Counted from the first letter of the stretch, positions 1 to 50,902 are shown. The stretch is 64,000 nucleotides of DNA from Escherichia coli (GCA_002099625.1 GCA_002099625.1_4857.1); one strand, 5' to 3'. Notes: a model not told the origin generated them from the sequence alone. Made by a program: numbers and translations.

Positions 1-981
1 GTCATACACCCGCCCGGAGACTTCCAGGAACTCACGCTTGAGTGTTTTGGTGTTAACGCCGTATAAGTTGCCGTCCCCTGCCCGGATGTTACTGAGGTAA
101 CGTTCACGGATGTGGTATTGAGCCACAGGCAGTAATGCCTTCAGGGTTTGGTACAAACCGATACGGGTATCCGTTGGACGAATCGCATCTTCGCGACCCA
201 TGACCTTGGAACCGGTTGAGAATGAAGACAGTACGTTACGCGTACCGTTCATTAACTTACGTGACGTCACTTTACGACGTGCAAAACCACCTTTACCGTC
301 TTGGATGTTGAAGAAGTACATCCAGATATCATTAAAGGTTTGTTGGAGCTTCCAGCGAACCGGGTCAGTCAGTTCCGTTCGCGTACTGCGGTCGGGGATT
401 GCACGTGCCAGAGAAATCAGACGGCGGTAGAGTCCGCCAATCTCTTCTTCTTGGTCGCGGCCATCCTGACGAATGACCAAATCACGTAATCCCGCAGGCA
501 GAACCAGCACATAGCGGCTGAGACTGACCGGACGGAACTTATTGAAGAAATCGACTGTCTCGTCGCGACGCATCGATTCGTTGCGTCCCGGTGTCAGTTG
601 TTCGTAGTAGCGTAGGAAGAAGTTGAAGCCGGTGTCTGCACCTTTATCACTGGGCAGAGCCGGCTCGAAGTCTTTTTCTTTCTCATTCCAGATAGCGAAT
701 CGCTTCCCGGAACAGATTTCTTCGTACAGCTGTTTCAGCTGGAACAATGCCAAACAAACGGTCGGCGAAATGATATCCAGTTTGATATCAATGTACGAGA
801 ACGTTGAGTCTCGTGCTTCGCTCCCTGTGAGGCCAAAAATTTCGGTTGAATACAGTCCTTCAGGGTGAAAGTTTTTCGTCAGTCCCTGAAAGGTGTCTGT
901 TGTTGTAACTGGTTTTAAATGCGACACCAGGGACTTGTTGACGTTTAACAAGTAAAAGTCAACCCAGTTTAGCTTTCTCAC
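1..981 (-). CDS. RNA polymerase beta-prime-like subunit, N-terminal part (3-prime partial, runs off window start)
   Basis: Translation of the reverse strand gives GLYSTEIFG, LPAGLRDLVIRQDG...GGLYRRLISLARAI and DGKGGFARRKVTSRKLMNGTRNV, which align by eye to E. coli RpoC segments GLFCARIFGP, LPPDLRPLVPLDGG...NDLYRRVINRNNRL and [23 protein letters not shown]. GTG start at 981 with AGGAG 7 nt upstream. Not in the ORF track because no stop falls inside the window. Confidence 0.7.
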   Translation of the reverse strand, partial: MRKLNWVDFYLLNVNKSLVSHLKPVTTTDTFQGLTKNFHPEGLYSTEIFGLTGSEARDSTFSYIDIKLDIISPTVCLALFQLKQLYEEICSGKRFAIWNEKEKDFEPALPSDKGADTGFNFFLRYYEQLTPGRNESMRRDETVDFFNKFRPVSLSRYVLVLPAGLRDLVIRQDGRDQEEEIGGLYRRLISLARAIPDRSTRTELTDPVRWKLQQTFNDIWMYFFNIQDGKGGFARRKVTSRKLMNGTRNVLSSFSTGSKVMGREDAIRPTDTRIGLYQTLKALLPVAQYHIRERYLSNIRAGDGNLYGVNTKTLKREFLEVSGRVYD

Positions 982-1010
982 TTTTAAGCTCCTGAATTGG
1001 AAGAAACATT

Positions 1011-4000
1011 ATGGCAAAAAGAGGCAAAGACGGTTTCGATGATATCGATTTAGATAGACTCGACGACTGGGATGATTTCGGTGAACCACCCCGTCCCAAA
1101 GACGAGAAAAAACGAAGCCCGATACTCAGTACCCTGAATGTTGCCAGGAAGTCGGCGTTGTCAACTATCTGGCCAGAAGGGAAACGCGACCAAGTTATCC
1201 TCAAGGGGATGCCTAAGCCGGCAGCTGATGCATACGAGGGCTATCAGTCAGCGGCAGCTGCAGCAAAGGACATTTACGCCCATACGAAAGGGGAGCTTGA
1301 GAAGACCGAGCGCACGCTGAAGATGCAAGCGCGTCAACTCGGTCCGACAATGAAGAAATACTTGCCGGATGCAGTTACTAAACGCTTCGACAAGTGGTCA
1401 AAATCTGACCAGTTAGATTACCAGAACTACGATCCGAATCAGGCATTGATGGATCGTGAACTGGGCGACGTATTCTCAGGTGTGCCAAAGGACGCCGATG
1501 AGCAACGTCAGCTGCAGGATCGCATGGTAGAGGACAAGCTCCGTGACAGCATCAAAGAGATGCGCGCGGATGCAATGCACCAAACCATGATTGGGATGGC
1601 GAAAGATATTAACCTGTTAACCGGGTTAAGCCGTGGGGTATTCTTAAACATCGAGCGTAAGAAGCTCGAATTGCAATACCGCACCCTGTTCGCCATTCAA
1701 GACATCGTGAAGATGAAGCAGTCGGAGTTCGATCGTAACACGCCTGCTTTAGAAGCCATCGTGAAGAACACGGCACTGCCGGATTACGCGAAGGAAGATT
1801 TCTCAGAAGTCCGTTGGGCGAACGTTAAACGCCAGGCTGCGGAATGGATGAACCCGTTGCGTTATGCTGACGGGTTTATGGACATGATTCGCGAAAATAC
1901 CAAGAAGAAAATTTCTGGTATATTTGGCGAAGGTCGTGGTTTGTTAGAGTCCGTTCTCGGCATGGGTGTTGAAGACGATTTCGGCATGAGCGATAGCTCT
2001 TCGTTGACTGCCGAACGTCGCAAAACAAATGCTCGCGATAAAGCAACTGCATGGGGTAGCGGATTCCTTGCGAAGAAACTACTCGGCCCACAAATCGAGA
2101 AACTCCAGAAATGGACTCGTGAGGAGATGGAGAAAAATCCAGAGGTCATGAAACGCCTGCAGAAGGGCGCGTTCACCTTTGGTAATCTTTCCTCTATCTC
2201 GAACTCAGCTATCGCAGGCGAAACGCAAGGACCGTTGGCGGATTTGTTCCGGGTATTGAATGAACTCGGTATTGTCCAACCGTTAAACCGCGAGAAAGCT
2301 TTTCTTGATGAGCGTAATGGCGAAACGTTAAGCCGTTCGGCGAAGTTTGACCGCAAAGCGTATCTTAGCATAGTTGAAGTTATTCCTGCCTGGCTGGCAG
2401 AGATTAACAAATCTGTTCGTCGTGGCTATGGCGAACATGCCGACCTGGAATATGACATCACCAGCCGTGGTTTCGTAGACCGCAAAGTGGTCGGTAATCG
2501 TGTACGAAAAGCGGTTGCAAATGATGAGCAGCGTCTGCGTCTTCAGAATTCCATTAATAGCACTGTGGATTTTGTTGACCGCGGCAAAACACTCTCGCAG
2601 AAGGATCGTCAGCATCTTGCCGACTATATTGAGTCGCGTGCCTCGCAGGGCCGTGCATTCGACGTAGAAGCAATTTTGAAAGACCCGATGCATCTTCATC
2701 GGTATATGCCAGGAAACTCTGCAGAACGCATTAAGGAAGCGTTACAGGGGCATTCTGATAGCCTGGTCGGTGGTAGCAACGAATTAAGTAACGAACTGGC
2801 TCGCAAAATCTCCACAGTGCAGTCATCTATCACCCAACGTCAGGCAATTATCGACGAGGCGGTGAATATTTACGGCGAGCGAGCGTTGCGTGATGCGGGT
2901 ATCTTTAACTACGACGCGAAGAGTGACACCTTCGGCGTGGATAAAGACCTGTCCGATCCCTATACCTTGTTTAATGACTTGGCGATGGGTAAGACACGCA
3001 GCGGGCGTGCATTGACTCGTGACCAGGAGATTCAACGTAAGCTGCAAAATGGTTCGGCGTTAGGCGACTATCTGCGCCGAATGAACCAAGGGGCAAGTGG
3101 TGGTGCCGATGACACGTCGTTACCGCCGGCTTTACGTGGCGGTGGTAAAGGCCGCGGAATGTCGCCTCGGCAGCTAGCCGCGGTTCTCTACGGTGAAACC
3201 TCGACTAACTTTGTTGAATTGTTGAGTCAACGTAACCGTGGCGAAGAAGCGCCACGGAATAACTTTGACGGTATCATCGAAGCGATTCGGGGTAACAACA
3301 ACAGTGACACCCTCCAGAAAATTCTGGAACACGTCAGAAGCATGGACGAAGAAGGGGTTCTCCTGGCTTCGTTAGCAGGGGGTGCTGGTTCTGGCGATGA
3401 AGAAATGGGCCCGCCTCGCCCTGGCGGTGGTAGCGGTGGCGGTAAACGCCGTCGTATTATCATCGGTGAGGATGGGCTTATTCGTCGTTGGGGTGGTGTG
3501 TTGTTCGACACCGCAACAGGAATCGGCGGCTTTGCAAAACGTGGTGTTAAGGGTGCCTGGAATAAACTGAACCAGTTCGGTGGCTGGGCACGCGGTAAAG
3601 TCGCAGGAATGGGTGGCGGAGAAGGTCCTGGTTTCTTAACCCGGATGCGTGGCCTTATTAGTGGTAGTGTCCGTGGGGGCTTTGAAGCAGTAAGCTCTTT
3701 CGGTAAAGGACTACTGGGTATCCGCGACATTTACGATGACCACGGTAATGTTGTTCTGCAGGGCGCACGCCTGGAAGCTGGGGAATACTACCAGGTTATT
3801 GATGGTAAGATGGTTCAGTTGAAAACACTGGACGACATCAAGCTGGGGAGCGACATTGTTGACTCCGCAGGTAATCTGGTATTAGCGGCCGCTGACTTAG
3901 CCGCTGCGGGTAAACTCCGCTACTATAAAGGCGGGAAAATCCAAGCACTGACCCAAGGTCTGGCCAGTAAGATTGGTTTAGGCTTTAATAAGGTGGCTAA

Positions 4001-7000
4001 GCTACCGAAAAGGTTCCTGGATTTCCTGTCACCAAAAGCGGGCAGCATCGTTGGTAAGATTAAGGACTGGCTGAACGAGATTCCGGAAGGCGAAGAAAAG
4101 ACACGTCTCCAGAAAGCGTTCAACCGTGTAACGAGCTTACCGGGTAAAGTGCTCGGTTTTGCGAAACGTGGTGTCGATCGTCTGAAAGACATGATTACCG
4201 ACAACCCACTGACGCGTTGGTGGAAAGGCCGTAAAGATGGTGGGGGTGGTGGTTTCAGTCTCTTCTCATCAACCGGCAAGAAAACCAACCACATCCTTAT
4301 CCGTATCTATAAACTGTTGAACCAACGTTTACCGGGAGATCCGGAAGACGAAAGTTGGACAGAGGAAATGGAGAAGGGCGTCGGGGGTGGCGGTAGTACG
4401 ATCGGTCGTGCAGTACGCGGGGCGTATGATCGTGCGAAAGCGTCATTGTCTGAACGTTTTGGTGGACGTTGGTCAAGAACAAAAGCGTTCTTTGGTCGTG
4501 GACGTGACCGCCTGCGTGGTTGGTTCAGTGGTTTCCGAGGCCGGGCTGGGGATATGCTCGATGGATATCGTGGAGCACGACACGACATTGCTACACGTTA
4601 CGAAGTTGAACGTCGGTTGGCTGGACGCGATGACGATGTTGCTGAGTTTTATCGCAGCCATTTGAACGCGAAAGGTGGCCTTTCTGGCCGTAAAGTCTAC
4701 GGCGATGCGAAGGAAGACCTTGAGACCGCACGTGATGCAGCAGGGAGGGTTATTAACAAAGGGAAGAATGCTGCCAAGTCTGCAGGTGCAAGGTTATTCG
4801 AACGCTTGGACCGAATGATTGGCTTGCAAGAGATGTCGTGGTTTAACACCATGCGCGAATCAGTATCCCGTGCAGGTGGTGACGATGGCATTATTCGCAC
4901 CATGTTTGCGAAGTTCGGTAAACGTAACAAGCCGCCTGAAGGTGATGAAAAACGCGACTACTTTAACTTCTTCAAACGTTGGCGTGAGAAACGTAAGGAG
5001 AAGAAAGAGAAAGCGCAGGGCTCCAAAGGGAAATCTGGCGGTCTGTGGGATATGGTGAAAGGCTTACCTATCATCGGCCCCATCGTCAGTATCTTGGGAA
5101 CTGTGGGTAATATACTCGGTTCTATCACGAAATGGGGGGTGTTAAAACCCGTAGGTCTTTTAGGTAAGGCTGCGTGGAACGTTGGTAAGTTCGCAGTAAC
5201 CCGTTTGGCGGCACCCGCGGTGTCCGCTGTGGCAACTGCGGCATCTGCCGTCGTGACAGCAGTGGGCTGGCCGGCAATTCTTATCGGTGGCGCGATCGCT
5301 GCGGCAGGTTACGCCGCGTACAAGATCGCAACGACTACCTATACCCAGTACCTGGATAAGATGCGTTTAGCTCAGTACGGTTTCCGTGATTACGATAAGT
5401 GGTCGTCGGACGACGGGGCGAAGGCGCGTTACTTAGAAGACGCATTGCGTGAGTATGTGTCTTACGCGGAAGATGGCCAAGCCAGTCTCCGCGGACTAAG
5501 TGGAAAAGACGTTCAGAAGTTAGCTGAAGGGTTCGGTATCAACGTTGAGGAAAAAGGCGAGATGTTGGCCTTCCAAGCGTTTATGCTTCAGCGCTTCATT
5601 CCGATTTATCTCCGCTGGATTACGGCACTGAAATCGATGCCGAACAGTATCCAGTTGGCTGACGTCGGCGATGCGAAGAAAGTATCGAAAGAGGACATGC
5701 AGACACTCTTCAACAAAATGAAGATGACTAAGGATGCAAAAGCGTTCTCTTCGTTAACTGACCCACGCAAAGTCAACCAAGGTTTCTTCTCGAAAGCTTG
5801 GGACGTTGTAACCTTTACACCGAAGGAGTTTTTGAGCGGTGAAGAGGTTATGGAAGTGCAGAATGAAGTTGAGCGTGCAATCAAGTTCAGAATGGACGAT
5901 AAGAAAGCACGTAAGTACGGAATGGCACCGGCTGTAGAGGGGATTAAGTCCGCGGGCGTTGATGAAGCTATCAACAAACTTGGACAGTTGGATAACGAAC
6001 GTAATAAAAATCTGGCGAAGGTAGAGGGTTGGGAAGACGGAACAGAGCAGGTTCAGATTCAGGTAGACTGGAATGCGGTGCTCGACCAGAAAGACATGAA
6101 TGCGATGGAGTCGGTACGTTGGAAGACTTATGGTTTTACCACCATCGACAACGCCACACGCACGTTGATTACGGTATTCGAGAAAAACGTCATCAAAGAC
6201 ATTGACGTGAAAACCGCAAGCTACAAAGGTGATTGGAAGAAAGCAATCGCCTCAATGGTTCCAGACGCTATCGGCACACCGAAAGAAGATCGTTTGAAGC
6301 GGTGGTTCTTTGACCGTTTCTTACCGGTATTCATGACGTACTTGGTTGGGGTGAAACGCTACCTGCCAACAGCTGATCCGCTGAACTTGAAACTGACCGG
6401 CGGTTACCTGTACGAAATCAGTTTGATGATGTCAACAGCTTATAGCTTGAAGGGCGGTATAAGACAGTCGGTGTGGGAAGTGAATATCAACCCATTAGGG
6501 GGCGATGCTAACACTAATCCGTCGTCTATCAAAGCCGAGCTGGAAACGCTGAAGCTGTTATCAAAAGAAGCTGACCTTGCCGTGCGTAACATGATTAAAG
6601 CCATTAAAAATAATGGCAAGCGTGCACGCTGGAAGGATCGTAACAAGAACCGCAGTTCTCTGGAAGTCACCGGTGAAGATGAAGAAGACTCGAACATCAG
6701 TTCGGGAGATTCTTTGTCATCTGACGGTGCTCGCGCCTCAGGCTACATTCCATCGGGCACGAGTGGCGGTGTGCCGGGTAACTTAGGTCAAGTCGTCGAT
6801 GCGGTTGGTGGTGTGCGGAACTACGCTGCAATGACCACTGGTTCGTCGTCGATTAACCTGAGTGATGTGAAAGACGGTGATTATAAGTCACTGGCTGAAA
6901 AATACCCGATAGAAATGTTGGGTAGAAAGGGTGCGTTGAACGTTCCGAATATCAAAGCATTGATTACCGATGCAGCGAACATGATGGGCGTGCCACCTGC

Positions 7001-8132
7001 AGTGGCGTTAGCAATGGCTAAGGCGGAGTCCGGATTTAACTACACCGCTAAAAACCCGTATGCTTCGGCGTCTGGGTTGTTCCAGTTTGTTAACGGCACG
7101 TGGGACGGGATGATGAAGGGGTATTCGCGGAAGTTTGGTATTCCGCGTGTTAACCAAATGGACCCGTGGGCGAATGCTATACTGGGTGTACAGTTCATTC
7201 GTGACAACATCCAACAAGCACAACGTGACCTGGGTGGTAAAGCACCACCTCCAGCCGTGGCTTATCTGTACCACTTCCTAGGTGCAGGCGGCGGTAAGAA
7301 ATTCCTGGAAGCGTGGAAGCGTAATCCGAATATGGCGGCATCGAGTGCTCCTGGGATTACATCCGCAATATTGAGAGGGAATGCCAACGTCTTCTACAGC
7401 AACGGTCGTATACGTAGCGTAGATGGGGTTATTCAGGAACTGAACCGCCGCATGGGTGCAATTTCCGCCAACGAAGTCGCTGCCGATCCGAGCAAGACGA
7501 AGGATATGGTTGCAGGATTGTCGCCTAATTCACCAACCAACCCGGCAGCGGCAATGGGTGCACCGGCCGCTAATGACCCGAGTCTGTCGCCAGCAGATAA
7601 CCTGCCAGCAGATAATGCTAATCGTCGTGATGACGCATTGACGCAGAAAGGGGCCATGGCGGCACAAGATGCAATGGCTACCGCCGCAGGTAATGTAGGA
7701 CCAGCAGCACCTACACCAACCACAGGCGGTACCGGAACATCCGATGCCTCAACAACGGCCGAAACCGTAGCGTCGCAAGCTGCAGCAGAAGGATTGTCTG
7801 CGACGGATGTTGCTAAAGTGAAAGCAGGCGCGGAAGCGCAGGTTAACGCAGCAGCTCGTCCAGTTGCCGCTCCAACTTCTGATGCTACAGCATCGACGCC
7901 AACGCTGAATGGTGACCCGATAGATGTTCAGCAGCTCAAGGTACTGATTCAGTCTCGCGATTACTTGAAAGAGATTCGTGATATTTTGAAATCAAATCCA
8001 AGAGCGGCAAACGACACACGGGGTGGTAGTATCCAGCAAGCGGCAAATGTGCCTCCTCCTGGCTCAGCTGCACGTAGGCAGGAAATAACCCAACCGACAC
8101 CGTCGTTAAACGTAAGTCGGAAAGCAAGCTAA
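1011..8132 (+). CDS. Giant virion-associated protein (2373 aa) with C-terminal SLT lytic transglycosylase domain; resembles the phiKZ gp181 class
   Basis: Single uninterrupted ORF. SLT motifs ESGFNYT...ASASGLFQF...AYLYHFLG at about nt 6940..7340. Gly-rich repeats, a long hydrophobic segment (AAPAVSAVATAASAVVTAVGWPAILIGGAIAAAGYAAY) and an Ala/Pro/Thr-rich C-terminal tail. Confidence 0.8.
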   Translation: MAKRGKDGFDDIDLDRLDDWDDFGEPPRPKDEKKRSPILSTLNVARKSALSTIWPEGKRDQVILKGMPKPAADAYEGYQSAAAAAKDIYAHTKGELEKTERTLKMQARQLGPTMKKYLPDAVTKRFDKWSKSDQLDYQNYDPNQALMDRELGDVFSGVPKDADEQRQLQDRMVEDKLRDSIKEMRADAMHQTMIGMAKDINLLTGLSRGVFLNIERKKLELQYRTLFAIQDIVKMKQSEFDRNTPALEAIVKNTALPDYAKEDFSEVRWANVKRQAAEWMNPLRYADGFMDMIRENTKKKISGIFGEGRGLLESVLGMGVEDDFGMSDSSSLTAERRKTNARDKATAWGSGFLAKKLLGPQIEKLQKWTREEMEKNPEVMKRLQKGAFTFGNLSSISNSAIAGETQGPLADLFRVLNELGIVQPLNREKAFLDERNGETLSRSAKFDRKAYLSIVEVIPAWLAEINKSVRRGYGEHADLEYDITSRGFVDRKVVGNRVRKAVANDEQRLRLQNSINSTVDFVDRGKTLSQKDRQHLADYIESRASQGRAFDVEAILKDPMHLHRYMPGNSAERIKEALQGHSDSLVGGSNELSNELARKISTVQSSITQRQAIIDEAVNIYGERALRDAGIFNYDAKSDTFGVDKDLSDPYTLFNDLAMGKTRSGRALTRDQEIQRKLQNGSALGDYLRRMNQGASGGADDTSLPPALRGGGKGRGMSPRQLAAVLYGETSTNFVELLSQRNRGEEAPRNNFDGIIEAIRGNNNSDTLQKILEHVRSMDEEGVLLASLAGGAGSGDEEMGPPRPGGGSGGGKRRRIIIGEDGLIRRWGGVLFDTATGIGGFAKRGVKGAWNKLNQFGGWARGKVAGMGGGEGPGFLTRMRGLISGSVRGGFEAVSSFGKGLLGIRDIYDDHGNVVLQGARLEAGEYYQVIDGKMVQLKTLDDIKLGSDIVDSAGNLVLAAADLAAAGKLRYYKGGKIQALTQGLASKIGLGFNKVAKLPKRFLDFLSPKAGSIVGKIKDWLNEIPEGEEKTRLQKAFNRVTSLPGKVLGFAKRGVDRLKDMITDNPLTRWWKGRKDGGGGGFSLFSSTGKKTNHILIRIYKLLNQRLPGDPEDESWTEEMEKGVGGGGSTIGRAVRGAYDRAKASLSERFGGRWSRTKAFFGRGRDRLRGWFSGFRGRAGDMLDGYRGARHDIATRYEVERRLAGRDDDVAEFYRSHLNAKGGLSGRKVYGDAKEDLETARDAAGRVINKGKNAAKSAGARLFERLDRMIGLQEMSWFNTMRESVSRAGGDDGIIRTMFAKFGKRNKPPEGDEKRDYFNFFKRWREKRKEKKEKAQGSKGKSGGLWDMVKGLPIIGPIVSILGTVGNILGSITKWGVLKPVGLLGKAAWNVGKFAVTRLAAPAVSAVATAASAVVTAVGWPAILIGGAIAAAGYAAYKIATTTYTQYLDKMRLAQYGFRDYDKWSSDDGAKARYLEDALREYVSYAEDGQASLRGLSGKDVQKLAEGFGINVEEKGEMLAFQAFMLQRFIPIYLRWITALKSMPNSIQLADVGDAKKVSKEDMQTLFNKMKMTKDAKAFSSLTDPRKVNQGFFSKAWDVVTFTPKEFLSGEEVMEVQNEVERAIKFRMDDKKARKYGMAPAVEGIKSAGVDEAINKLGQLDNERNKNLAKVEGWEDGTEQVQIQVDWNAVLDQKDMNAMESVRWKTYGFTTIDNATRTLITVFEKNVIKDIDVKTASYKGDWKKAIASMVPDAIGTPKEDRLKRWFFDRFLPVFMTYLVGVKRYLPTADPLNLKLTGGYLYEISLMMSTAYSLKGGIRQSVWEVNINPLGGDANTNPSSIKAELETLKLLSKEADLAVRNMIKAIKNNGKRARWKDRNKNRSSLEVTGEDEEDSNISSGDSLSSDGARASGYIPSGTSGGVPGNLGQVVDAVGGVRNYAAMTTGSSSINLSDVKDGDYKSLAEKYPIEMLGRKGALNVPNIKALITDAANMMGVPPAVALAMAKAESGFNYTAKNPYASASGLFQFVNGTWDGMMKGYSRKFGIPRVNQMDPWANAILGVQFIRDNIQQAQRDLGGKAPPPAVAYLYHFLGAGGGKKFLEAWKRNPNMAASSAPGITSAILRGNANVFYSNGRIRSVDGVIQELNRRMGAISANEVAADPSKTKDMVAGLSPNSPTNPAAAMGAPAANDPSLSPADNLPADNANRRDDALTQKGAMAAQDAMATAAGNVGPAAPTPTTGGTGTSDASTTAETVASQAAAEGLSATDVAKVKAGAEAQVNAAARPVAAPTSDATASTPTLNGDPIDVQQLKVLIQSRDYLKEIRDILKSNPRAANDTRGGSIQQAANVPPPGSAARRQEITQPTPSLNVSRKAS

Positions 8133-8180
8133 TCGTAGGGGGTGGCAACACCCCCTAATCATCTTACAGAGAGGTTTTAC

Positions 8181-10403
8181 GTGGAAGCAAGACAACTAAA
8201 AGATTCAGGATGGGTAACCGGCCTGTTTGGCGGTACAACCGCACAGCGCGATGAGCGCTTCCTGGGTTTGCGTCGTTACTCTAACGCGATGCTCTCGTTT
8301 GAAGATACCACGATGGGTGGTTCGCAAGCGTTAAATGCGCCGCCGCAGTTTACGATGTTTGCTGATCCGAGTTCAACAGGTGCCTTTGCACAACCTGATG
8401 CGGGTCGTGGCTCGTACTCAAAGTACGTTAAAGGTCAAGACCAACGTGGTTCCTATCGTCTAGGGACTTTCTATTACGAAGCTATTAACCAAAACAGTTT
8501 TTATCTTCATTGTCGTTTCGGTAAACCCCGATATATCGGGGTCGCTGCATTCTTCGCGAATATGTACGATTCCAACCTAGCGTATCTGGCGCGCACAGGT
8601 GACTACCCAGGTATGTTACGTGCGATGGGGACGTATGTTGCCGCCGCAGCAATATGGGCTGCAGTAGGTACGGTTGCCTTTGCGGTTATTCTGATTACGC
8701 CACGTATGTTGAAGATGGTGCTGAACAAGCAGACTTCTCGCTACTACTACGTGAAACCGACAATGCATTTGTATCTGCGCGCTGTGCAGAATATGGTCAA
8801 TACCCAGTTAGTTTATCGCCGATTGGTACCAACGGGTGTGTTAGGGACTTTCCAGCTTGCTAATGCTGTAGATGGGTCTGAGAAAGGCGGTACTGCTAAT
8901 AAGTACAACGGCGACCGTAAAGAGTGGTATTCCATGCTGCCAGAAATCTGGACAGCTGATGGTGAGTTCGATATCTATCGAATGATTAACCGCTACCAAA
9001 CATTAGCCAACTACCAGGCGAAAACCATCGATAAAATTCGTAAAGAGTCGAGTAACGAAGAGGACATGGCTCGTCGTTTGCGAAACTTCTATCTGGAAGC
9101 GACGTACTCAACAACCCATTTGGAGAAAGCTGCGCAGTACGAGGTTTCTTTACGTAACCTTGAATACGTAGCCAAAGCCGGTAAAGGGTACGATGCTGGT
9201 TTTGAAAACGTCGATAACAAAGAAGACGAACTGGTAGCAGGGATGAACGGAAGCATTCAGGATGCTCAGTCACAAGGAGGTAAAGCTGAAAACTTCGAAA
9301 ACGAAGGTGATGCGCAACGTAAAGAGCTTGCCGAGCGTATGGCACAGGTTGAAAAGAACCAGGCTCAGGTTGCTAAAAGTCAGACCGAAGCAAACTCAAT
9401 GGATGAGAATAATCTCGACATTGGGAAGATTGAAAACTGGATGGACCAAGGCCAGAAAGAATCTGTCGGTAGCGTCTTCAAAGACTATATCGATATTTTA
9501 GAAGGCGCTATGGATGGGTTAACTTCGAACATCGCTTCGGAGATACGCAATGGTTCGCAGTGGATTACTTGGCGTGTTGATGGACGTGATACCGTAGGGC
9601 GTTCGTTCTCCAACACCACCAAAGAACCTGAAATCTCTGGCACGGTTAACTCCGCCACACAGAAAGCACGTTCTTTGGAAGTAAACCTCTCTGGTGGTAA
9701 GACTGGTTTCGACGCAGTCGATGGTCTCATTACTGGGTTGAAGTCCGCCTTTACAGGCGCACTCGATTTCTTGCATTTATCAGGGATTATGTCGCTGTAC
9801 AACTCGTCAGTGATTGACTTCCCGGAAGTGTGGGACTCCTCAGACACCTCAGGTGACGATATCTCGCTAAGCATTCCCCTTCGCTGTTGGTCGGGTAACG
9901 ACTTAGATGTGTTCCAGGATCTGATTGTCCCGTTGTCGTTCTGGTTAGCGGCAGTTTGCCCGTTAGCAACCGGTAAACAATCGTTTACGCACCCGTTCTA
10001 TCTGGAGTGTTATTCTCGTGGTCGTTATTCCATGCGTAATGCCATGGTAACTAACTTGAGTCTCCAGTTTGGTACAGGTGGGTTAGGGTGGCGTGCTGAC
10101 GGTCTGCCGTTGTCGTGTGATATACAGGTAACTATTCGTGACCTGTCACGCGTTATGTACATGCCGATTGTAACCGATATTGGTGTGTTTGATGATGATA
10201 ACAAGTTCAGTGAATTTATGTCTGTGTTGGGTGCTGCCACGCTTTACGAGCGTACCAACGGTATCGCGCAGGCTAAAATCAACGCGTCTATCTGGGCGCA
10301 GAACTGGGCAAGTGCCTGGTCACAGGGCAGCATCGTCAACGCCGCGTTAGATATCATACCGGCACGACAAATCGCGAACATTTTCCTACCACAAGCGCGA
10401 TAG
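8181..10403 (+). CDS. Hypothetical protein (about 741 aa), probably virion-associated
   Basis: Long ORF immediately after the giant gene. Start chosen at GTG 8181 (GAGAGG 6 nt upstream); the track start at 8142 lies inside a hairpin. Contains one hydrophobic segment. Confidence 0.6.
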   Translation: MEARQLKDSGWVTGLFGGTTAQRDERFLGLRRYSNAMLSFEDTTMGGSQALNAPPQFTMFADPSSTGAFAQPDAGRGSYSKYVKGQDQRGSYRLGTFYYEAINQNSFYLHCRFGKPRYIGVAAFFANMYDSNLAYLARTGDYPGMLRAMGTYVAAAAIWAAVGTVAFAVILITPRMLKMVLNKQTSRYYYVKPTMHLYLRAVQNMVNTQLVYRRLVPTGVLGTFQLANAVDGSEKGGTANKYNGDRKEWYSMLPEIWTADGEFDIYRMINRYQTLANYQAKTIDKIRKESSNEEDMARRLRNFYLEATYSTTHLEKAAQYEVSLRNLEYVAKAGKGYDAGFENVDNKEDELVAGMNGSIQDAQSQGGKAENFENEGDAQRKELAERMAQVEKNQAQVAKSQTEANSMDENNLDIGKIENWMDQGQKESVGSVFKDYIDILEGAMDGLTSNIASEIRNGSQWITWRVDGRDTVGRSFSNTTKEPEISGTVNSATQKARSLEVNLSGGKTGFDAVDGLITGLKSAFTGALDFLHLSGIMSLYNSSVIDFPEVWDSSDTSGDDISLSIPLRCWSGNDLDVFQDLIVPLSFWLAAVCPLATGKQSFTHPFYLECYSRGRYSMRNAMVTNLSLQFGTGGLGWRADGLPLSCDIQVTIRDLSRVMYMPIVTDIGVFDDDNKFSEFMSVLGAATLYERTNGIAQAKINASIWAQNWASAWSQGSIVNAALDIIPARQIANIFLPQAR

Positions 10404-10425
10404 TACACCACAGAGGTAGCGCATT

Positions 10426-10977: not shown

Positions 10978-11035
10978 CAAAAAAATAAGTAATGCGAGTA
11001 CCCCTAACGGGGTACTCGTTTGCTTTATTTTTTAG
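10977..11035. terminator. Bidirectional intrinsic terminator between convergent genes
   Basis: A-run, stem CGAGTACCCC / GGGGTACTCG (10995..11018) with TAAC loop, then T-run. Confidence 0.6.
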
Positions 11036-12343: not shown

Positions 12344-12354
12344 TTTGATAGCTC

Positions 12355-12397
12355 CTTAAACAAAAAAAAATAAGTAGGGTGTCCATATGGACACCCT
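12355..12397 (-). terminator. Intrinsic terminator (minus strand)
   Basis: Stem TAGGGTGTCC / GGACACCCTA (12374..12397) followed on the minus strand by a 9-T run; the next gene's RBS follows directly. Confidence 0.55.
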
Positions 12398-12407
12398 AAT
12401 ACGTATT

Positions 12408-12596: not shown

Positions 12597-12608
12597 ATTT
12601 TCCTCTAC

Positions 12609-13088: not shown

Positions 13089-13099
13089 CTGTTTTCACC

Positions 13100-13867: not shown

Positions 13868-13868
13868 C

Positions 13869-14653: not shown

Positions 14654-14665
14654 AAACGCTCCTAA

Positions 14666-15703: not shown

Positions 15704-15705
15704 AA

Positions 15706-21133: not shown

Positions 21134-21664
21134 TTAGAGATAGTGTTCCACTATCACTTCTAACTCGCGGAAGATATGTGCGGTTTGATTAAACAGCGTA
21201 TCCTGTTCGGGTGTTTGTTTATCAAATGCACGCTGATACAGTTCTAACATAGCGAAGACTGTGCGCAGTTTATCGCGCGCGACTTCAGGATCGGATGCAC
21301 CGAAATAATGATCAAGCCATCGTGGTTCTGAACTCTCTCCTTTTCTATCGATTGCCTCAGGCAACTCTAACCAACGTTGATTGGGAATGTTGCTACTGGA
21401 TACACGGTTATACTCAGAAATGAAGAATTCCAATCGCTCCACCAACGTGTCAAAATCTCGAATACGTAATTCGAGTTGTCCACGCAATGAAAAAGGAAGG
21501 TATTCTTTCCCATTATATTCCAGAGGCTCTGTAATGAGTTCTAAGCCCACCATCACTCTGTGCAGGGTGTTATGGGTATTCTTATGAAACTCAGCCTCCA
21601 AAGAGCGTCTGCGAGCTTCTATAGCCTTACGACGCAGGAGTGTTGAAAGCCATTTAAAAAGCAT
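21134..21664 (-). CDS. Hypothetical protein (176 aa)
   Basis: ORF whose upstream region carries the TAGATAATATCT near-palindrome. Confidence 0.5.
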   Translation of the reverse strand: MLFKWLSTLLRRKAIEARRRSLEAEFHKNTHNTLHRVMVGLELITEPLEYNGKEYLPFSLRGQLELRIRDFDTLVERLEFFISEYNRVSSSNIPNQRWLELPEAIDRKGESSEPRWLDHYFGASDPEVARDKLRTVFAMLELYQRAFDKQTPEQDTLFNQTAHIFRELEVIVEHYL

Positions 21665-21697: not shown

Positions 21698-21710
21698 TAG
21701 ATAATATCTG
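21698..21710. promoter_or_regulatory. Near-palindromic motif TAGATAATATCTG (site 1 of 3-4)
   Basis: In the divergent region between 21134..21664 (minus) and 21741..22211 (plus). Confidence 0.4.
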
Positions 21711-21740
21711 TCTGAGTTCTTTTTGAGATGAGGTTATCCC

Positions 21741-22211: not shown

Positions 22212-22887
22212 ACAGAGCAGTGTCCTTTACGTCAGTACCGACGTATTGAGCAAGAAAACGGGTGGACTCCTTAAAGGGGTTCACCTTATCTCTTTTTATT
22301 TGCGCGATTGCTTCTTCCGTCAATTCGCTGGTCAGCATACTCGGTCGGGTAATGGTGAAATCCGGAATCGGTTTCTGGAAATGGCCCGCGTGTTGTTCTA
22401 TCCACGGGTACCAGTCGTACATTATCCAACCGTCCCACGCCGAAGCAAGTCGTCCTGGTGTAAGATCGCTGTGAGGAATAACAACGACGTCTACTTGCAC
22501 TTCGTTGTAGTAGTAGCGAAGTTCTTCCAAAAACGCATGACGTTCTTCATCATCGAGATCGGCGTATGGCCACAGGTTAAACGTTAAGACAGGTCGCTCG
22601 ATAGGAGCGTGCATCTGTATCGTCATTAACATTGCCTGTACTTCGTTCTTTAGCGTAAGCAACATTTCTGTTGGCTGCGCGTTCTGCAACGCGCGTTTAT
22701 CACGCTCCGCGAACTTTTTATTCCAGTCCTGAATTCCTACCACTTCGGCCCACGCATCCGTGAACCGCATCCGATACACTTCTAAATCAAGCTTCTCTAA
22801 TACATCAGGCTGCAGCACTTTCGCCCAACCAATTCGTGTATCGAAGATTGTGTCGATATCGACTAAGAAACGGCGTCCTAATCTCAT
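22159..22887 (-). CDS. Hypothetical protein (242 aa)
   Basis: ORF; ATGA-type overlap with the upstream gene. Confidence 0.5.
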   Translation of the reverse strand: MRLGRRFLVDIDTIFDTRIGWAKVLQPDVLEKLDLEVYRMRFTDAWAEVVGIQDWNKKFAERDKRALQNAQPTEMLLTLKNEVQAMLMTIQMHAPIERPVLTFNLWPYADLDDEERHAFLEELRYYYNEVQVDVVVIPHSDLTPGRLASAWDGWIMYDWYPWIEQHAGHFQKPIPDFTITRPSMLTSELTEEAIAQIKRDKVNPFKESTRFLAQYVGTDVKDTALFSLRRHQQDDDSQTQTP

Positions 22888-23552
22888 TCCGGGCGTCCTA
22901 AGTTGTTACCGATGTGCATTGCTTTAAAGTACGAAGACCATGTACGCGGCGCTTTTGAACTGGTACGCTCAGCCCCTTCCAGGTTGATGCGACCTTTACC
23001 GGTTTGCCGTAGCGATTGATAGAACGCACGTTGTAACGTATCGTTACCACCACGCGCCCACAGGAACTCCTGGAGCGTTGAGTCGTGTCCATCCGAGTAC
23101 ATGATGTACGCTTCTGGAAACGAAACACCCGAGGCTTTGGAAGGCCCTACTACCTGACCTGAGAGTTTATCGCGGACTTTATCGTTCTTCGCCACCGCCA
23201 TTTTCTTCTCTTGCATCTGCGTCTGGCGACGTGCAGGTAGCCGGAAGACTAAATGGGGGTAACGGGTACGCTGTAGGATACCGGTTTTCGGTTCCGTGAG
23301 CCACAGGCGCTGACACAAGTTCAGTCCCATCGCTTCGCAAATTTTAATATTGCGCATATGGTCAATTTTGACCTTGCCGCCAGTTGGGTTGTAAACAGGC
23401 AACCCTTCGCGCAGACGATTGAACTCTTCGTCAGACATTCGTGAGAAAGCGCGCTTGGCAGCTTCCGCGTTAATCCCGGTCGGGTCAACTAAGTTCAGTA
23501 ACTGTAAAGCATAAGCTTCTGCTTTTTTTCGCCGTGCCGGGTCTAATCTCAT
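22884..23552 (-). CDS. Hypothetical protein (222 aa)
   Basis: ORF, 4-nt start/stop overlaps with neighbours. Confidence 0.5.
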   Translation of the reverse strand: MRLDPARRKKAEAYALQLLNLVDPTGINAEAAKRAFSRMSDEEFNRLREGLPVYNPTGGKVKIDHMRNIKICEAMGLNLCQRLWLTEPKTGILQRTRYPHLVFRLPARRQTQMQEKKMAVAKNDKVRDKLSGQVVGPSKASGVSFPEAYIMYSDGHDSTLQEFLWARGGNDTLQRAFYQSLRQTGKGRINLEGAERTSSKAPRTWSSYFKAMHIGNNLGRPE

Positions 23553-28493: not shown

Positions 28494-29228
28494 TCAGTAG
28501 TTTAGTTTCTCAGCGACTTCTTTACGGATGCGACACATCACCACCATCGCACCATTCGGAATTTGGCTCACGCAGTTATCCGTGTAAAACTTACCTCCAC
28601 ACAGATAAAAGTCCAGACACATGGCATCGGTCAGCTCGTGCCACAGGGTGCCGAAACCATACTGCCAAGGACCGGAATGAATGACATCGTAATCGCCTTC
28701 AGTTATGCCAAATGCGGCAGTAGCGGAAGACCACAATGTTGAGGAGGTGGTATAAGTGTCATACCAGTAACCGAGCAGACGATGGTTACGACGTATCTCA
28801 GCTAACCGCTCGTACATTGGGATGAATACATCTTCCACCTGCGTGACAAAATCAGCCAGCATCAACTTTTCCGTGAACCACTCGATCCACGCAAAGATTT
28901 GTTCTTCAACGTCTTGTTGGCTTAACCCCGTGGCAGTAATGCCTTCTTCGTAGGTGTAACCTTCGTAGACGTCAACAACATTAATCTCTACATGTTCTAG
29001 CGTGAACAACCGTTCGGTGTTGATGCAGTCGTACATCTCTTGTAACCACGCAGTGAAGACTTCTATACAGACGTTGATGGCTGTGTACTTGAATTCATCG
29101 CGCAGTGGATACCACTGTGGGTTATCCTTTAGTTCGTTCTTCGCGAACGCGGGCCAATGCTTTTCGAACAACGCTTCAAAGAACTGGGGCGTGAGGTTTA
29201 AAAGCACTGGCACTTCGACTTTAAGCAT
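28494..29228 (-). CDS. Hypothetical protein (244 aa)
   Basis: ORF; the TAGATAATATCTA near-palindrome lies about 35 nt upstream of its start. Confidence 0.55.
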   Translation of the reverse strand: MLKVEVPVLLNLTPQFFEALFEKHWPAFAKNELKDNPQWYPLRDEFKYTAINVCIEVFTAWLQEMYDCINTERLFTLEHVEINVVDVYEGYTYEEGITATGLSQQDVEEQIFAWIEWFTEKLMLADFVTQVEDVFIPMYERLAEIRRNHRLLGYWYDTYTTSSTLWSSATAAFGITEGDYDVIHSGPWQYGFGTLWHELTDAMCLDFYLCGGKFYTDNCVSQIPNGAMVVMCRIRKEVAEKLNY

Positions 29229-29261: not shown

Positions 29262-29274
29262 TAGATAATATCTA
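29262..29274. promoter_or_regulatory. Near-palindromic motif TAGATAATATCTA (site 2)
   Basis: About 35 nt upstream of the start of gene 28494..29228. Confidence 0.4.
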
Positions 29275-29281
29275 TCTCAGA

Positions 29282-36952: not shown

Positions 36953-37546
36953 TTACGCTTCGGCCTCAAAGAACGGCTGGTTCGGTACCACTGCATATTC
37001 GAGCACGAAAAGATGTTCTGGGGCATCTTCTGCTCGCCACAGTTTGTGGCACGTTGCCAGTTTTTCCAGGATGGTCAACCAGCTGAGCTGGCAGAAAGCA
37101 CGATCGCCGAAGAACAGTTTCTGCAGTGCAATCGACACATCCATATACGCCTGTTTGAAGTCGAGTTCTTTATCGTAACCCGCCGACTGTCGCCACGTCA
37201 GCACGAAGCCTGCTTCGGTTTCGTTAATTGCTGGACGTAAACCACAAATCCACATCAGCGCCAGATTAACGTTCCAGTCGAATTCGATACCTTCGTCTTC
37301 GTCATCACCAAACGCCGCGTTTAACGCGTCGTAGAAACCGTGGTTCTCTGCGAACCATTCGCCGTACTCAACGTAGACAGGTGCTTCGACAGCTTCCCCA
37401 TCGGCTTCACCGATAGGACGCTCAACGTAGTTCGGATTGGTTTGAACGTGTTCCGCACCCGCGCGAATCAGTTCGTAAACGTCTTTGGCGGTGATTTGTG
37501 CGGCTGTTTTAAGACCTGGATACCAGGGGCGTGTTACGAGTGTCAA
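36953..37546 (-). CDS. Hypothetical protein (197 aa)
   Basis: ORF; 4-nt overlap with the upstream SLT gene. Confidence 0.5.
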   Translation of the reverse strand: MTLVTRPWYPGLKTAAQITAKDVYELIRAGAEHVQTNPNYVERPIGEADGEAVEAPVYVEYGEWFAENHGFYDALNAAFGDDEDEGIEFDWNVNLALMWICGLRPAINETEAGFVLTWRQSAGYDKELDFKQAYMDVSIALQKLFFGDRAFCQLSWLTILEKLATCHKLWRAEDAPEHLFVLEYAVVPNQPFFEAEA

Positions 37547-38265
37547 AGCAATGCTCCTTTCATGATAGTGTTATTTGCCAGTAATGTACCGGCCGCAGGT
37601 GATATTTTGGTGTACAGCGTATCCCAGATTTTCTGAAGTTCGGCGACGCGTTGGTCGTGGTCTTCCTTCGCAAAAGCAAGCTGACGTGTTTCAGCTTTCG
37701 GTGGTGTCATTTTCGCACCGTAGAATGCTGCGTCTTTTCGGTAGCTGGCCATCCAGCGTTTCCCGACCGGTGATTTCTTTTTAATCATCGCAACAGCAGC
37801 ACCCTCACCGAAGCGGTAGCCTAAAGCGATTTCGGCTGTGCTCGGCTTGCGTTTGAGTTGTTTTGTCAGATGATCCTCGATGTGTTTCATGTAAACGGCA
37901 GCAAGCTGTACAGCATACTTCGGTTTATTAAGGTCCGCATTCTTTGGGATGTTAAGTTGTTTCCCATACAGACGTATCATGGAGCGTTTAGTGCCTGTCG
38001 TCATTTGGACAACACTACTAGCACTGCTCGATTTATTCTTACCCACGTTTTTATTAAAACGGGATTCACGATAAATGGTGGTCGCGAGCATCCCGGCATG
38101 TACGCCTTGTTTTCGAGATGCGGTGACGATGAGAGGTTTAATCTCATTGAACTGGTCCTGGATAAGGACGAATTCTTTTTGGTGTTTGTTACTGGTGGTC
38201 TGGTAAGAAGCGTTGCTGTTGAACGTAGTCATTGCTACCAGAAGAAATAAAATGGTGCGAAACAT
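37543..38265 (-). CDS. Secreted SLT-domain lytic transglycosylase (240 aa); endolysin candidate
   Basis: N-terminal signal peptide (MFRTILFLLVAMTTFNSNA) and SLT motifs TIYRESRFN ... VVQMTTGT. Confidence 0.6.
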   Translation of the reverse strand: MFRTILFLLVAMTTFNSNASYQTTSNKHQKEFVLIQDQFNEIKPLIVTASRKQGVHAGMLATTIYRESRFNKNVGKNKSSSASSVVQMTTGTKRSMIRLYGKQLNIPKNADLNKPKYAVQLAAVYMKHIEDHLTKQLKRKPSTAEIALGYRFGEGAAVAMIKKKSPVGKRWMASYRKDAAFYGAKMTPPKAETRQLAFAKEDHDQRVAELQKIWDTLYTKISPAAGTLLANNTIMKGALL

Positions 38266-38355: not shown

Positions 38356-38367
38356 TGATAATATCTA
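38356..38367. promoter_or_regulatory. Near-palindromic motif TGATAATATCTA (site 3)
   Basis: Between the macro-domain gene and the secreted SLT gene, about 90 nt upstream of the latter. Confidence 0.35.
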
Positions 38368-38865
38368 TTTGAAACTATTTGGGATGATTTTCTCTGCTTC
38401 CTTTAGCAGTGTGTCCGGTAAATAGAATCGATAAGTCTGCTCCGTGTGTTGTAGTCGTTTCTGTAAGTGTATAAAGATTTCCAATCGCTCATGGTAACGT
38501 AACCAACCGTTAGCCATCCCTAGGGGCGGTATCGCAATCCCTCCTTCTAAGTCTTCCCCTAGTCGCGCCAGCGCATCAATGCCGGACGTGACATAGTAAA
38601 TCTGCGATTTATAGCGAAAATGGGTTTTAGTAGGAAGGAGTATTACCCCTTCCTCAGGATAACAATAGACCTCACCGATAACGATTTGCTCTTTACGACA
38701 TTTCTGGCGATAGTCATTATAAAGCGATGGGAAGCGTTCTCGGCACGCCAAAGCAATGCCCCTTCCCATTGCACCAACACAGTTAACTGTAACGACCTTG
38801 AAGCGCTCAGGCGCGTTAAACAAGTCGTGGGAGATAACGGCCTCGTCGATCAGTTCGAGTGACAT
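38365..38865 (-). CDS. Macro-domain protein, TARG1/DarG-like subclass (166 aa)
   Basis: VTVNCVGAMGRGIALACRERFP matches the TARG1-type C..MGAGIA..F...F motif (recalled from memory); downstream IAIPPLGMANGWLRY fits the second conserved block. Confidence 0.6.
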   Translation of the reverse strand: MSLELIDEAVISHDLFNAPERFKVVTVNCVGAMGRGIALACRERFPSLYNDYRQKCRKEQIVIGEVYCYPEEGVILLPTKTHFRYKSQIYYVTSGIDALARLGEDLEGGIAIPPLGMANGWLRYHERLEIFIHLQKRLQHTEQTYRFYLPDTLLKEAEKIIPNSFK

Positions 38866-47083: not shown

Positions 47084-47112
47084 AGTTGAGTTAATCTCTT
47101 AACTCTCACCTA

Positions 47113-47132
47113 GGTAATATATATCTGAGATA
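47113..47132. promoter_or_regulatory. Degenerate variant GGTAATATATATCTGAGATA (possible site 4)
   Basis: Shares TAATAT..ATCTGAGAT with site 1; sits between the stop of 47135..47731 and its terminator. Confidence 0.2.
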
Positions 47133-49543: not shown

Positions 49544-50782
49544 TTACAGTAAACGCAAATCAGCGACAAACAATAGTTGACGGCCGTACTTAGTCACTTC
49601 TTTCCAGCCATTGTTAACACCCCATTTGATGATGGCATCGTAATGCCACTGTTTCAGTTCGTTGGTACCCCACGCATCCCGTACCGCCTTCGCCGACATC
49701 AAATAAGCAGGTTCGGCAACGGAGCGCATTTCAGAATCTGGCAGGCGAGAAACAACGGAACTGTTCACACGTTGCAGTGTACCGGACACTTGCACCCAGA
49801 ATGCGGGCGATACCATATTTGTCGGTCGACAGTCAAATACCCAGGCCGTGTCATTTTCACTGGCCGGGGTCTTACGCTTATAGATGCTTAACAGTATTTC
49901 CGATTGGATAACTTCGCGGAAAACGTTAAGAAGGGTGACGACCTTCTCATTAACCACCTCACCCTTTTCGACCTTATAGTAATCTTTAAGGTTTCCGGGC
50001 TCTGTTATCGGCATTACTGACCAAACATCGGCGTCTAACATCTCACCGAAATAATGGTTAGCGTTTTCATCAGATGTCCAGAACATCGTATTGCCATCAT
50101 TGGCTATGGTGACTAGATCACGCAGTGCTTCCTTGGTGTCTTCGTCAATTTCCACAGGTTTGGCTGCTTCTCGCGGTGCGTTTTTCGTGTAGAATCTGCG
50201 CTTGCTTACCGCTCTATTCCATACGGTAGTAATTTGGTACGCAGTGAATTCGGGGAACTGCTGCACTAACACTTCCGCATCAACATCGAGTCGCTCTGAA
50301 TTAAAGTTTTGTAATTTCTCATTAAACCCTGTATTCAGCTCTCCGCCAGTCCACCAGTTGCTATCGCTTAGTGCAGGCATGTCAGGTGTTAACTCGAACA
50401 CCGGTTTACCGGTCAGCAGAGTAAGAATGTAGTGCACCCACATTGTGTTACCCTCAGCAATGGCGCGTCCGATGTTTTGATTACCCGATAGGTAAGCTAC
50501 CCGCGAATCCCCTTCGAATGTCATGGTTAACTCAACCCACGGCGCTAAGTCAGAGACGTGGTGGCCTAAACGGCACTTTACTTCCCCTTTGTCAAGCAGC
50601 CTCTTTTCGACAACGGTTGAGAGCTTTTGTGGCAGGTACGCACAATCCTGCCACGTTACGTCGCTGTAAGCCATACTCCGAACACTGAACTGCATTCCCA
50701 ACAGTACAATTGAGTTAGTAATTACTGCATTAAAGAATGCTTCTTTCGGTGTCTGGTAAACTAATTCGTATTCGTTATACAT
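49544..50782 (-). CDS. Hypothetical protein (412 aa)
   Basis: ORF after a hairpin terminator. Confidence 0.55.
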   Translation of the reverse strand: MYNEYELVYQTPKEAFFNAVITNSIVLLGMQFSVRSMAYSDVTWQDCAYLPQKLSTVVEKRLLDKGEVKCRLGHHVSDLAPWVELTMTFEGDSRVAYLSGNQNIGRAIAEGNTMWVHYILTLLTGKPVFELTPDMPALSDSNWWTGGELNTGFNEKLQNFNSERLDVDAEVLVQQFPEFTAYQITTVWNRAVSKRRFYTKNAPREAAKPVEIDEDTKEALRDLVTIANDGNTMFWTSDENANHYFGEMLDADVWSVMPITEPGNLKDYYKVEKGEVVNEKVVTLLNVFREVIQSEILLSIYKRKTPASENDTAWVFDCRPTNMVSPAFWVQVSGTLQRVNSSVVSRLPDSEMRSVAEPAYLMSAKAVRDAWGTNELKQWHYDAIIKWGVNNGWKEVTKYGRQLLFVADLRLL

Positions 50783-50902
50783 TTGGTATTTCCTTTAAAG
50801 TACACTAAAGTGACCAAAAACTGTTACTAAAGAACAGTTGGTGTTTAAGCGACTGTGGGTTTATACACAATGCTCACTAAGATGACATCTATCTGTAAAA
50901 AC

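Follow-up and report, generated by a model that had tools for sequence, protein, structure and literature searches.

A reading frame predicted to encode the beta-prime N subunit of the virion RNA polymerase of an SPN3US-type jumbo phage

The reading frame at the window edge

The window, as we call the whole 64,000-nucleotide stretch of DNA analysed here, opens inside a minus-strand reading frame that faces a giant plus-strand gene across a short spacer. These features, and a second polymerase gene further in, are:

1..981, minus strand: predicted virion RNA polymerase (vRNAP) beta-prime N subunit gene, first 327 of 537 codons, called from the ORF, identity to SPN3US gp240, PHROG 2986, phiKZ gp180, a profile search of the PDB and the predicted fold
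982..1010, no strand: divergent intergenic spacer of 29 bp holding both ribosome-binding sites, read directly from the sequence
1011..8132, plus strand: gene for a giant virion protein of 2373 aa, orthologue of SPN3US gp239 and phiKZ gp181, called from Pfam, PHROG and BLASTP
22884..23552, minus strand: second predicted vRNAP piece, 222 aa, orthologue of SPN3US gp218 (beta-C), called from the ORF and PHROG 3233

Translation of 981..1 gives 327 codons without a stop, open at the window edge. We read the full gene in near-identical genomes, where it spans 1614 nt and encodes 537 aa; the window holds 61% of it, the first 327 of 537 codons, and the remainder lies past position 1. The first-pass annotation had recommended looking beyond the window for the rest of the gene and for other split subunits, and these genomes supplied both: the gene stops at 537 aa, and further subunits are encoded elsewhere (below).

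The start codon is a GTG at 979-981 on the minus strand, with AGGAG upstream at 989-993 and a spacer of 7 nt. An alternative GTG at 925-927 would fit the length of 519 aa given for gp240 by Thomas et al. 2016 (PMC5105663). We dropped this candidate: a Shine-Dalgarno sequence is missing there but present, as AGGAG, before the GTG at 979-981, and homologues, including phiKZ gp180, also speak against it by reaching about 10 residues upstream of a conserved LLNV.

Within the spacer, AGGAG at 989-993 belongs to the minus-strand gene and GGAAGA at 999-1004 to the plus-strand gene, and the divergent start codons lie too close together for promoters to fit between them. We considered the phiKZ late-promoter TATG for the divergent pair; a 4-nt motif is too short to judge by sequence, and the only TATG in the 29 bp overlaps the ATG of the gene at 1011..8132.

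Over its 327 window-encoded residues the product is identical in amino acid sequence to SPN3US gp240 (SPN3US_0240, AEP84073.1 / YP_009153534.1), whose gene differs from the window at 10 nucleotides, all of them synonymous third-position changes. The same region of phage 1252 differs at 20 nucleotides, again with no amino acid change. Because the nucleotide differences from SPN3US and phage 1252 alter no residue, the frame is a real gene under purifying selection. The closest relatives, SPN3US included, have the same start codon, the same 29-nt spacing to gp239 and the same downstream gp241.

One could read the frame instead as a decaying remnant, or as the start of a contiguous full-length beta-prime gene of another element, such as a gene of a bacterium: some near-identical proteins bear Salmonella enterica names in the database, and Pfam finds nothing in the protein. 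We consider this very improbable. Synonymous differences throughout argue against decay, and all the relatives that we read have the gene complete, at 537 aa, with a separate gene beginning 18 nt further on. The genes of the 241,679-bp contig behind the "Salmonella" record stand in phage order, which marks the contig as an entire phage genome within a bacterial assembly, and at least 80% of the query is present in 293 phage records.

Phage group and split polymerase subunits

A translated search found the fragment in 325 phage-genome records. The best belong to SPN3US, a Salmonella phage of ~240 kb, and to relatives such as the SPFM series, SEGD1, phage 1252, Proteus phage 7 and Escherichia phage EC001. 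Over its first 25 kb the window has 97-98% DNA identity to SPN3US-group genomes, in the opposite orientation, and the whole window corresponds approximately to SPN3US 149.3-213.3 kb. The window DNA is distinct from every record examined; AAHHUU010000001.1, which encodes a 100%-identical protein, has 352 mismatches to it in 10,981 nt. The SPN3US record is classified as Seoulvirus, and SPN3US is listed among the nucleus-forming Chimalliviridae. Sequence comparison thus places the window in a nucleus-forming jumbo phage of the SPN3US group (Seoulvirus, Chimalliviridae), an identification that extends from the one gene to the whole 64,000 nucleotides. The first-pass annotation had proposed a phiKZ-like jumbo phage from the polymerase gene alone, and the identity to ~240 kb Seoulvirus phages, together with a match of the window protein to PHROG 2986 at 1e-141, bears this out.

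The giant gene at 1011..8132 diverges from the 981..1 gene at a distance of 29 bp. Its product carries a Pfam SLT lytic transglycosylase domain at aa 1984-2072 (window 6960-7226; 2.1e-9), matches PHROG 3201 end to end (E=0) and the transglycosylase family PHROG 4067 at 2e-29, and aligns to phiKZ gp181 by BLASTP at 1e-29 with further colinear segments. The divergent pair is also present in phiKZ. The gp180/gp181 adjacency that the first-pass annotation had named for that phage therefore exists, and it is reproduced here by 981..1 and 1011..8132.

In SPN3US, gp240 is encoded at 212357-213970 (537 aa), the divergent SPN3US_0239 encodes 2372 aa, and SPN3US_0241, which lies 18 nt downstream of gp240, encodes 1401 aa. 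This layout is repeated in phage 1252 and in the 241,679-bp Salmonella enterica contig. Neither Pfam, which detected no RNA-polymerase domain in the downstream 1401-aa protein, nor a single-sequence search of gp241 against the PDB, which returned chance matches only, identified that neighbour.

The product of 22884..23552 matches PHROG 3233 ("RNA polymerase beta subunit") at 9e-94, and its SPN3US counterpart gp218 is annotated at 189763-190431. Direct BLASTP against E. coli RpoB and a search against the PDB gave nothing significant for this protein. We assign it as beta-C on the basis of PHROGs and the literature: gp218 was described as beta-C, and as present in the SPN3US head, by Thomas et al. 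2016 (PMC5105663). Further annotated polymerase pieces lie at SPN3US 39365-40660 and in the non-virion polymerase (nvRNAP) set. Taking these genes together, we show that gp240 is one of several separately encoded pieces, the others being beta-N (gp241), beta-C (gp218), beta-prime-M (gp42) and beta-prime-C (gp244). The beta-N gene gp241 is immediately downstream of gp240, and gp42 and gp244 are encoded elsewhere in the genome.

Beta-prime blocks, profiles and fold

Pfam matched no family, RNA-polymerase domains included, in the fragment or the full-length protein, even at E<=10. Searched as a single sequence with phmmer against the PDB, the fragment had no match and the full-length protein gave only non-significant matches at E=0.39-0.94. 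We note that the alignment at E=0.39 laid three colinear stretches of the full-length protein on plastid beta-prime (VLPPELRP...LYRRVI, GK.GRFR...GRSV and NADFDGD).

Because these single-sequence searches gave nothing significant, a profile was needed. We collected 679 homologues at E<=1e-3 and built it from an alignment of 35 with identities of 37-100%. Against the PDB, the best match of the profile is the beta-prime N-terminal subunit of phage AR9 (E=1.5e-14, domain i-Evalue 3.4e-13), covering profile positions 35-255, wholly inside the window-encoded part. Plastid RpoC1 follows at 2e-11, with the cyanobacterial gamma subunit and with bacterial beta-prime at about 1e-7 to 1e-8. The best 60 of 88 PDB matches are listed, and all 60 are beta-prime or gamma chains. 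By hhalign, residues 138-252 align to E. coli RpoC 216-356 with 91% probability (E=1e-6); the same profile against E. coli RpoB yields a probability of 0.2% and no match.

Three blocks of beta-prime sequence lie in the window-encoded part:

820..879, minus strand: beta-prime block 1, aa 35-54, TKNFHPEGLYSTEIFG, including GLYSTEIFG, from alignment with aa 28-45 of AR9 beta-prime N and 37-66 of plastid beta-prime
403..513, minus strand: beta-prime block 2, aa 157-193, YVLVLPAGLRDLVIRQDGRDQEEEIGGLYRRLISLAR (VLVLPAGLRD...LYRRLIS), from PDB and RpoC alignments
223..306, minus strand: beta-prime block 3, aa 226-253, IQDGKGGFARRKVTSRKLMNGTRNVLSS / GKGGFARRKVTSRKLMNGTRNVLSS, from the profile against the PDB and the RpoC alignment

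Block 1 is the counterpart of the N-terminal GLFCxRIFGP segment of cellular beta-prime. Block 2 corresponds to E. coli beta-prime about 248-285 (VLPPDLRP...LNDLYRRVI), which on established E. coli numbering is the lid and clamp core. Block 3 corresponds to about 329-356, the switch-2 region on the same numbering, and its residues G229, K230, R241, G246, T247, R248 and V250 are invariant among the 35 homologues. All three are colinear with cellular beta-prime. These alignments show that the protein carries the beta-prime clamp, lid and switch-2 blocks.

The window ends upstream of the catalytic motif, and we read the catalytic residues from near-identical genomes. Full-length proteins that share the window's first 327 residues have GGDYDGD at aa 480-486, with D482, D484, G485 and D486 invariant among the 35 aligned homologues; the DxDGD site lies about 150 codons past the window edge. 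We thereby show that, beyond the window, the protein carries a double-psi-barrel with the Mg-binding D-x-D-G-D motif.

An AF2 model built from the alignment has a mean pLDDT of 80.5, with low confidence at residues 229-256 (switch-2) and 478-485 (the catalytic loop). Foldseek of this model against the PDB again placed AR9 beta-prime N at the top (5e-13), ahead of beta-prime from plastids, cyanobacteria and E. coli, and all the fold matches listed are beta-prime or gamma chains. Global TM-scores stay low, at about 0.3. The predicted fold supports the sequence evidence and cannot stand alone. Resting on profiles, predicted fold and orthology, the beta-prime assignment is confirmed.

Set beside the N-terminal halves of cellular beta-prime (E. 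coli RpoC 1-~520, cyanobacterial gamma, plastid RpoC1), the window protein is only about 12-14% identical, with blocks colinear to theirs: GLFxxRIFG, VLPPxLRP...LYRRVI, GKxGRFRxxLxGKRVxxSxRSVI and NADFDGD. In cyanobacteria and plastids the N-terminal part of beta-prime is likewise a separate polypeptide. The protein departs from a canonical RpoC in having no Pfam RNA_pol_Rpb1 domain and in a gene that stops at 537 aa, against a contiguous ~1200-1500 aa. It also lacks the N-terminal Zn-binding Cys cluster of bacterial beta-prime: the first two conserved blocks, GLYSTEIFG and YIDIKLDIISP, are only about 12 residues apart, the fragment has cysteines at 76 and 90 only, and no Cys is invariant among the 35 homologues. 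By hhalign, a 17-residue gap lies opposite E. coli beta-prime ~310-326, the rudder-side segment.

The first-pass annotation had called the product beta-prime from three successive clamp blocks. We find the blocks to be real and colinear, RpoB unmatched, and the listed PDB and fold matches to be beta-prime or gamma throughout. The two outcomes that it had set against its own reading, best hits to an unrelated family and a contiguous full-length beta-prime, are not what we observed.

Most database records call this gene something else. The entries for SPN3US and its relatives, like PHROG 2986 itself, read "RNA polymerase beta subunit", in keeping with a fragment of an RpoB-like subunit. We give that reading next to no credence. 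The leading PDB profile matches and the probabilities for RpoC and RpoB reported above oppose it, the DxDGD motif is a beta-prime hallmark, and beta-prime N is the subunit to which Thomas et al. 2016 assigned gp240 in the vRNAP (PMC5105663). Other records label the same gene "alpha chain" or "RNA polymerase III large subunit", so that the labels are unreliable. Since the profile matches beta-prime chains and not E. coli RpoB, we judge from the alignments that the "beta subunit" label is wrong and that the gene encodes beta-prime, which corrects a widespread annotation error: the subunit is neither beta nor alpha.

The virion rather than the non-virion polymerase

Phages of this kind encode two sets of split polymerase genes, and we compared the window protein with both. 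BLASTP aligns it to phiKZ gp180 with 31% identity over 324 residues (E=3e-46), and phiKZ gp55, the beta-prime N of the non-virion enzyme, is not matched by BLAST or hhalign. A further beta-prime-N-like gene of SPN3US, at 17704-19299, adjoins the chimallin homologue, and its product is the orthologue of phiKZ gp55 (E=8e-43). The two SPN3US paralogues have the DFDGD segment alone in common. The non-virion paralogue retains a Cys-rich segment.

Gene order in phiKZ is as in SPN3US: gp180 diverges from gp181, and the beta-N gene (gp178), head proteins and the prohead protease accompany it. The phages differ in the length of the subunit (490 aa for phiKZ gp180, 537 aa for the SPN3US-type protein), in an extra phiKZ gene, gp179, between gp180 and gp178, and in the spacer to gp181, which is 75 bp in phiKZ and 29 bp in the window.

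The closest solved relative by both profile (1.5e-14) and predicted fold (5e-13) is the AR9 non-virion beta-prime N subunit (PDB 7S00/7S01 chain d). The AR9 enzyme resembles the one considered here in its split beta-prime without the bacterial Zn ribbon. It differs in being a non-virion enzyme, from a uracil-DNA phage, with a promoter-specificity subunit and a different promoter, and its beta-prime N subunit is 14% identical to the window protein.

These structural matches are what would favour an nvRNAP beta-prime N subunit of the phiKZ gp55 / AR9 gp270 type, acting after infection on late genes in the phage nucleus. The solved structures that were matched include no virion enzyme, and the AR9 non-virion enzyme heads the list for that reason. 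Against a non-virion role stand the missing similarity to gp55, the existence of a separate gp55 orthologue in SPN3US, the gp180 match, and a gene order shared with the virion cluster (gp181, gp178, head protease); gp240 was moreover found in heads by mass spectrometry, in SPN3US virions as well as in tailless heads (PMC5105663). We regard the non-virion alternative as highly unlikely, and the comparisons place the gene in the virion polymerase set. This agrees with the split virion enzyme proposed in the first-pass annotation: the best phiKZ counterpart is gp180 and not gp55, and a frame of 537 aa is followed by a 1401-aa gene.

Almost certainly, then, 981..1 encodes the N-terminal 327 of 537 residues of the vRNAP beta-prime N subunit of an SPN3US-type jumbo phage, the orthologue of gp240 and gp180. 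The gene itself and its subunit type have been known since 2016, as have the location of the product in the head and the requirement for gp241, and the locus adds nothing new biologically on these points. In that work, an amber mutation in gp241 led to loss of gp240, gp42, gp218 and gp244, and the authors concluded that the SPN3US enzyme is assembled prior to head entry (PMC5105663). For phiKZ gp180 there is direct evidence that the virion enzyme is injected and is kept out of the phage nucleus (PMC10612078). Reviews describe the injected enzyme as transcribing early genes, including those of the non-virion polymerase, within the early infection vesicle, and describe infection as rifampicin-resistant.

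A promoter-like element in the non-coding fraction

Sigma70-like sites are not in excess in the window: positions 1-20000 contain 16, against 20.6+-4.4 in shuffles. A word search for words concentrated in the non-coding 6% of the window found two elements. One of these is the 15-nt, AT-rich word AGATAGATATTATCT, with an extended form of about TTTC-AGATAGATATTATCT-nnGTGA. Five intergenic sites of its family occur in the window, each lying on the minus strand and preceding a gene of that strand:

21699..21713, minus strand: promoter-like AGACAGATATTATCT, about 35 nt upstream of the gene at 21134..21664 (minus)
29263..29277, minus strand: promoter-like AGATAGATATTATCT, identical to the consensus, about 35 nt upstream of the gene at 28494..29228 (minus)
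38356..38370, minus strand: promoter-like AAATAGATATTATCA, upstream of the gene at 37543..38265 (minus)
47112..47126, minus strand: promoter-like AGATATATATTACCT, within a 448-bp non-coding stretch
50880..50894, minus strand: promoter-like AGATAGATGTCATCT, about 100 nt upstream of the gene at 49544..50782 (minus)

The motif was derived from the window, and the 176 kb of SPN3US that are non-homologous to the window served as an independent test, with at most 2 mismatches allowed. We found 15 matches there, where 0.35 were expected and 100 shuffles gave 4 at most. The non-coding 5.4% of this sequence contains 13 of them, and for 14 a gene in the same orientation starts within 250 nt. This held-out test speaks to the location of the motif and not to its function. 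Among the SPN3US genes with a AGATAGATATTATCT-type site in front of them are the chimallin homologue and two genes of the non-virion polymerase.

The core ATATTAT resembles the AR9 early promoter AAATATATATTAT-(6N)-G, which was mapped experimentally. A review generalises that each such phage has an AT-rich early element of about 10 nt near -10, a pattern with which AGATAGATATTATCT agrees. From its sequence and placement, the motif supports, short of proof, the presence of putative non-sigma70 early promoters. Promoters of that kind were a prediction of the first-pass annotation, and the locations of AGATAGATATTATCT lend it backing. The identification of the polymerase gene would explain why sigma70 logic is unsuited to promoter annotation in the window.

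A candidate enzyme and promoter pair

Transcription independent of the host RNAP, which the first-pass annotation had predicted, has been shown for phiKZ and AR9 and is a prediction for SPN3US. Complete independence is not to be assumed for SPN3US, because two Ralstonia jumbo phages that have both polymerases are, according to a review, rifampicin-sensitive. The literature describes the phage as having no alpha, omega or sigma homologues.

A scheme for the enzyme's role would run as follows. The gene would be expressed late, and the enzyme would assemble before or during head filling. It would be injected with the genome, free of sigma, alpha and omega homologues, and once injected it would start early transcription, including that of the non-virion polymerase genes, from AT-rich AGATAGATATTATCT-type elements.

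More tentatively, AGATAGATATTATCT could be a promoter that the sigma-less, five-piece vRNAP reads directly, with the absent Zn ribbon and the short rudder-side segment forming part of autonomous DNA recognition and opening by an enzyme that passes through the tail. We hold this to be a possibility with the odds against it. If it is true, the locus and AGATAGATATTATCT would constitute a defined enzyme/promoter pair for an enterobacterial host. As a by-product, the analysis provides an explicit early-promoter-like consensus for this phage group and its coordinates, a possible starting point for mapping transcripts or studying the vRNAP in vitro.

The other element from the word search consists of a GC-rich hairpin and then (C)TTATTTTTT, and in many cases the next start codon lies 20-30 nt further on. 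TTATTTTTT is the commonest intergenic word in the window; it is the T-tract of hairpin terminator-like sites, and we set it aside as a promoter candidate for that reason.

Putative transcription signals in the window

A promoter-like element, AGATAGATATTATCT, recurs on the minus strand of the window, 5' of minus-strand genes:

21699-21713, minus strand, promoter-like element
29263-29277, minus strand, promoter-like element
38356-38370, minus strand, promoter-like element
47112-47126, minus strand, promoter-like element
50880-50894, minus strand, promoter-like element

The element is conserved, with 15 further copies in the remaining SPN3US genome, nearly all of them intergenic and co-oriented. 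It is similar to the early promoters of the virion polymerase in both AR9 and phiKZ.

GC-rich hairpins followed by a (C)TTATTTTTT tract lie at the following window positions:

10981/11025, hairpin and T-tract, bidirectional
12366, hairpin and T-tract
17421, hairpin and T-tract
26525, hairpin and T-tract
35425, hairpin and T-tract
47757, hairpin and T-tract
49506, hairpin and T-tract
52811, hairpin and T-tract

These sites are terminator-like. The T-tract is stereotyped to an unusually fixed degree, all nine window copies of the TTATTTTTT 9-mer are intergenic or at gene ends, and the sites often fall just 20-30 nt 5' of the following start codon.

The beta-prime-N gene diverges from the gene for the giant SLT protein; both are presumably late, and a spacer of just 29 bp (window 982-1010) lies between their start codons, compared with 75 bp for the corresponding spacer in phiKZ. 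Because the spacer is this short, the promoters of the two genes must sit within each other's coding sequence; we identified no candidate promoter for the pair. We also found no tRNA genes and no Rfam families at the gathering threshold in the whole 64 kb window, whereas SPN3US and phiKZ carry tRNAs elsewhere in their genomes.

Start codon and Zn-ribbon region of the beta-prime-N gene

SPN3US gp240, the orthologue of the beta-prime-N protein, is 537 aa long in GenBank and RefSeq but 519 aa in Thomas et al, 2016 (PMC5105663). The shorter form would match an internal GTG start at 925-927, which lacks a Shine-Dalgarno sequence. AGGAG precedes the upstream GTG at 979-981, and homologues reach that far.

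The non-virion beta-prime-N paralogue (SPN3US 17704-19299) keeps a Cys-rich segment, CPAPIAHRYNLGCKCPTCG, with which CDC...ICDIC of phiKZ gp55 aligns. Compared with this paralogue, the virion protein (window 1-981) has no such segment, and the two enzymes therefore differ in their N-terminal Zn-ribbon region.

Public annotation and Salmonella deposits

Public names for the beta-prime-N gene (1-981) conflict (beta subunit, alpha chain, RNA polymerase III large subunit, hypothetical), and the SLT-domain giant protein (1011-8132) is named a tail fiber protein. Records of phages SPFM1, 8, 9, 10 and 12 hold beta-prime-N versions of odd lengths (273-566 aa) that score highly in HMMER, yet their BLASTP alignments cover just 18-19% of the query; the gene calls in these assemblies appear to be frameshifted.

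Salmonella enterica protein deposits include matches identical or ~91% identical to the window's beta-prime-N fragment, one cluster having 207 members. The one contig examined, AAHHUU010000001.1 (GCA_007203135.1; 241,679 bp), is a complete phage-sized genome in phage gene order. SPN3US-like phages thus travel with sequenced Salmonella isolates, either in a carrier state or as contamination.
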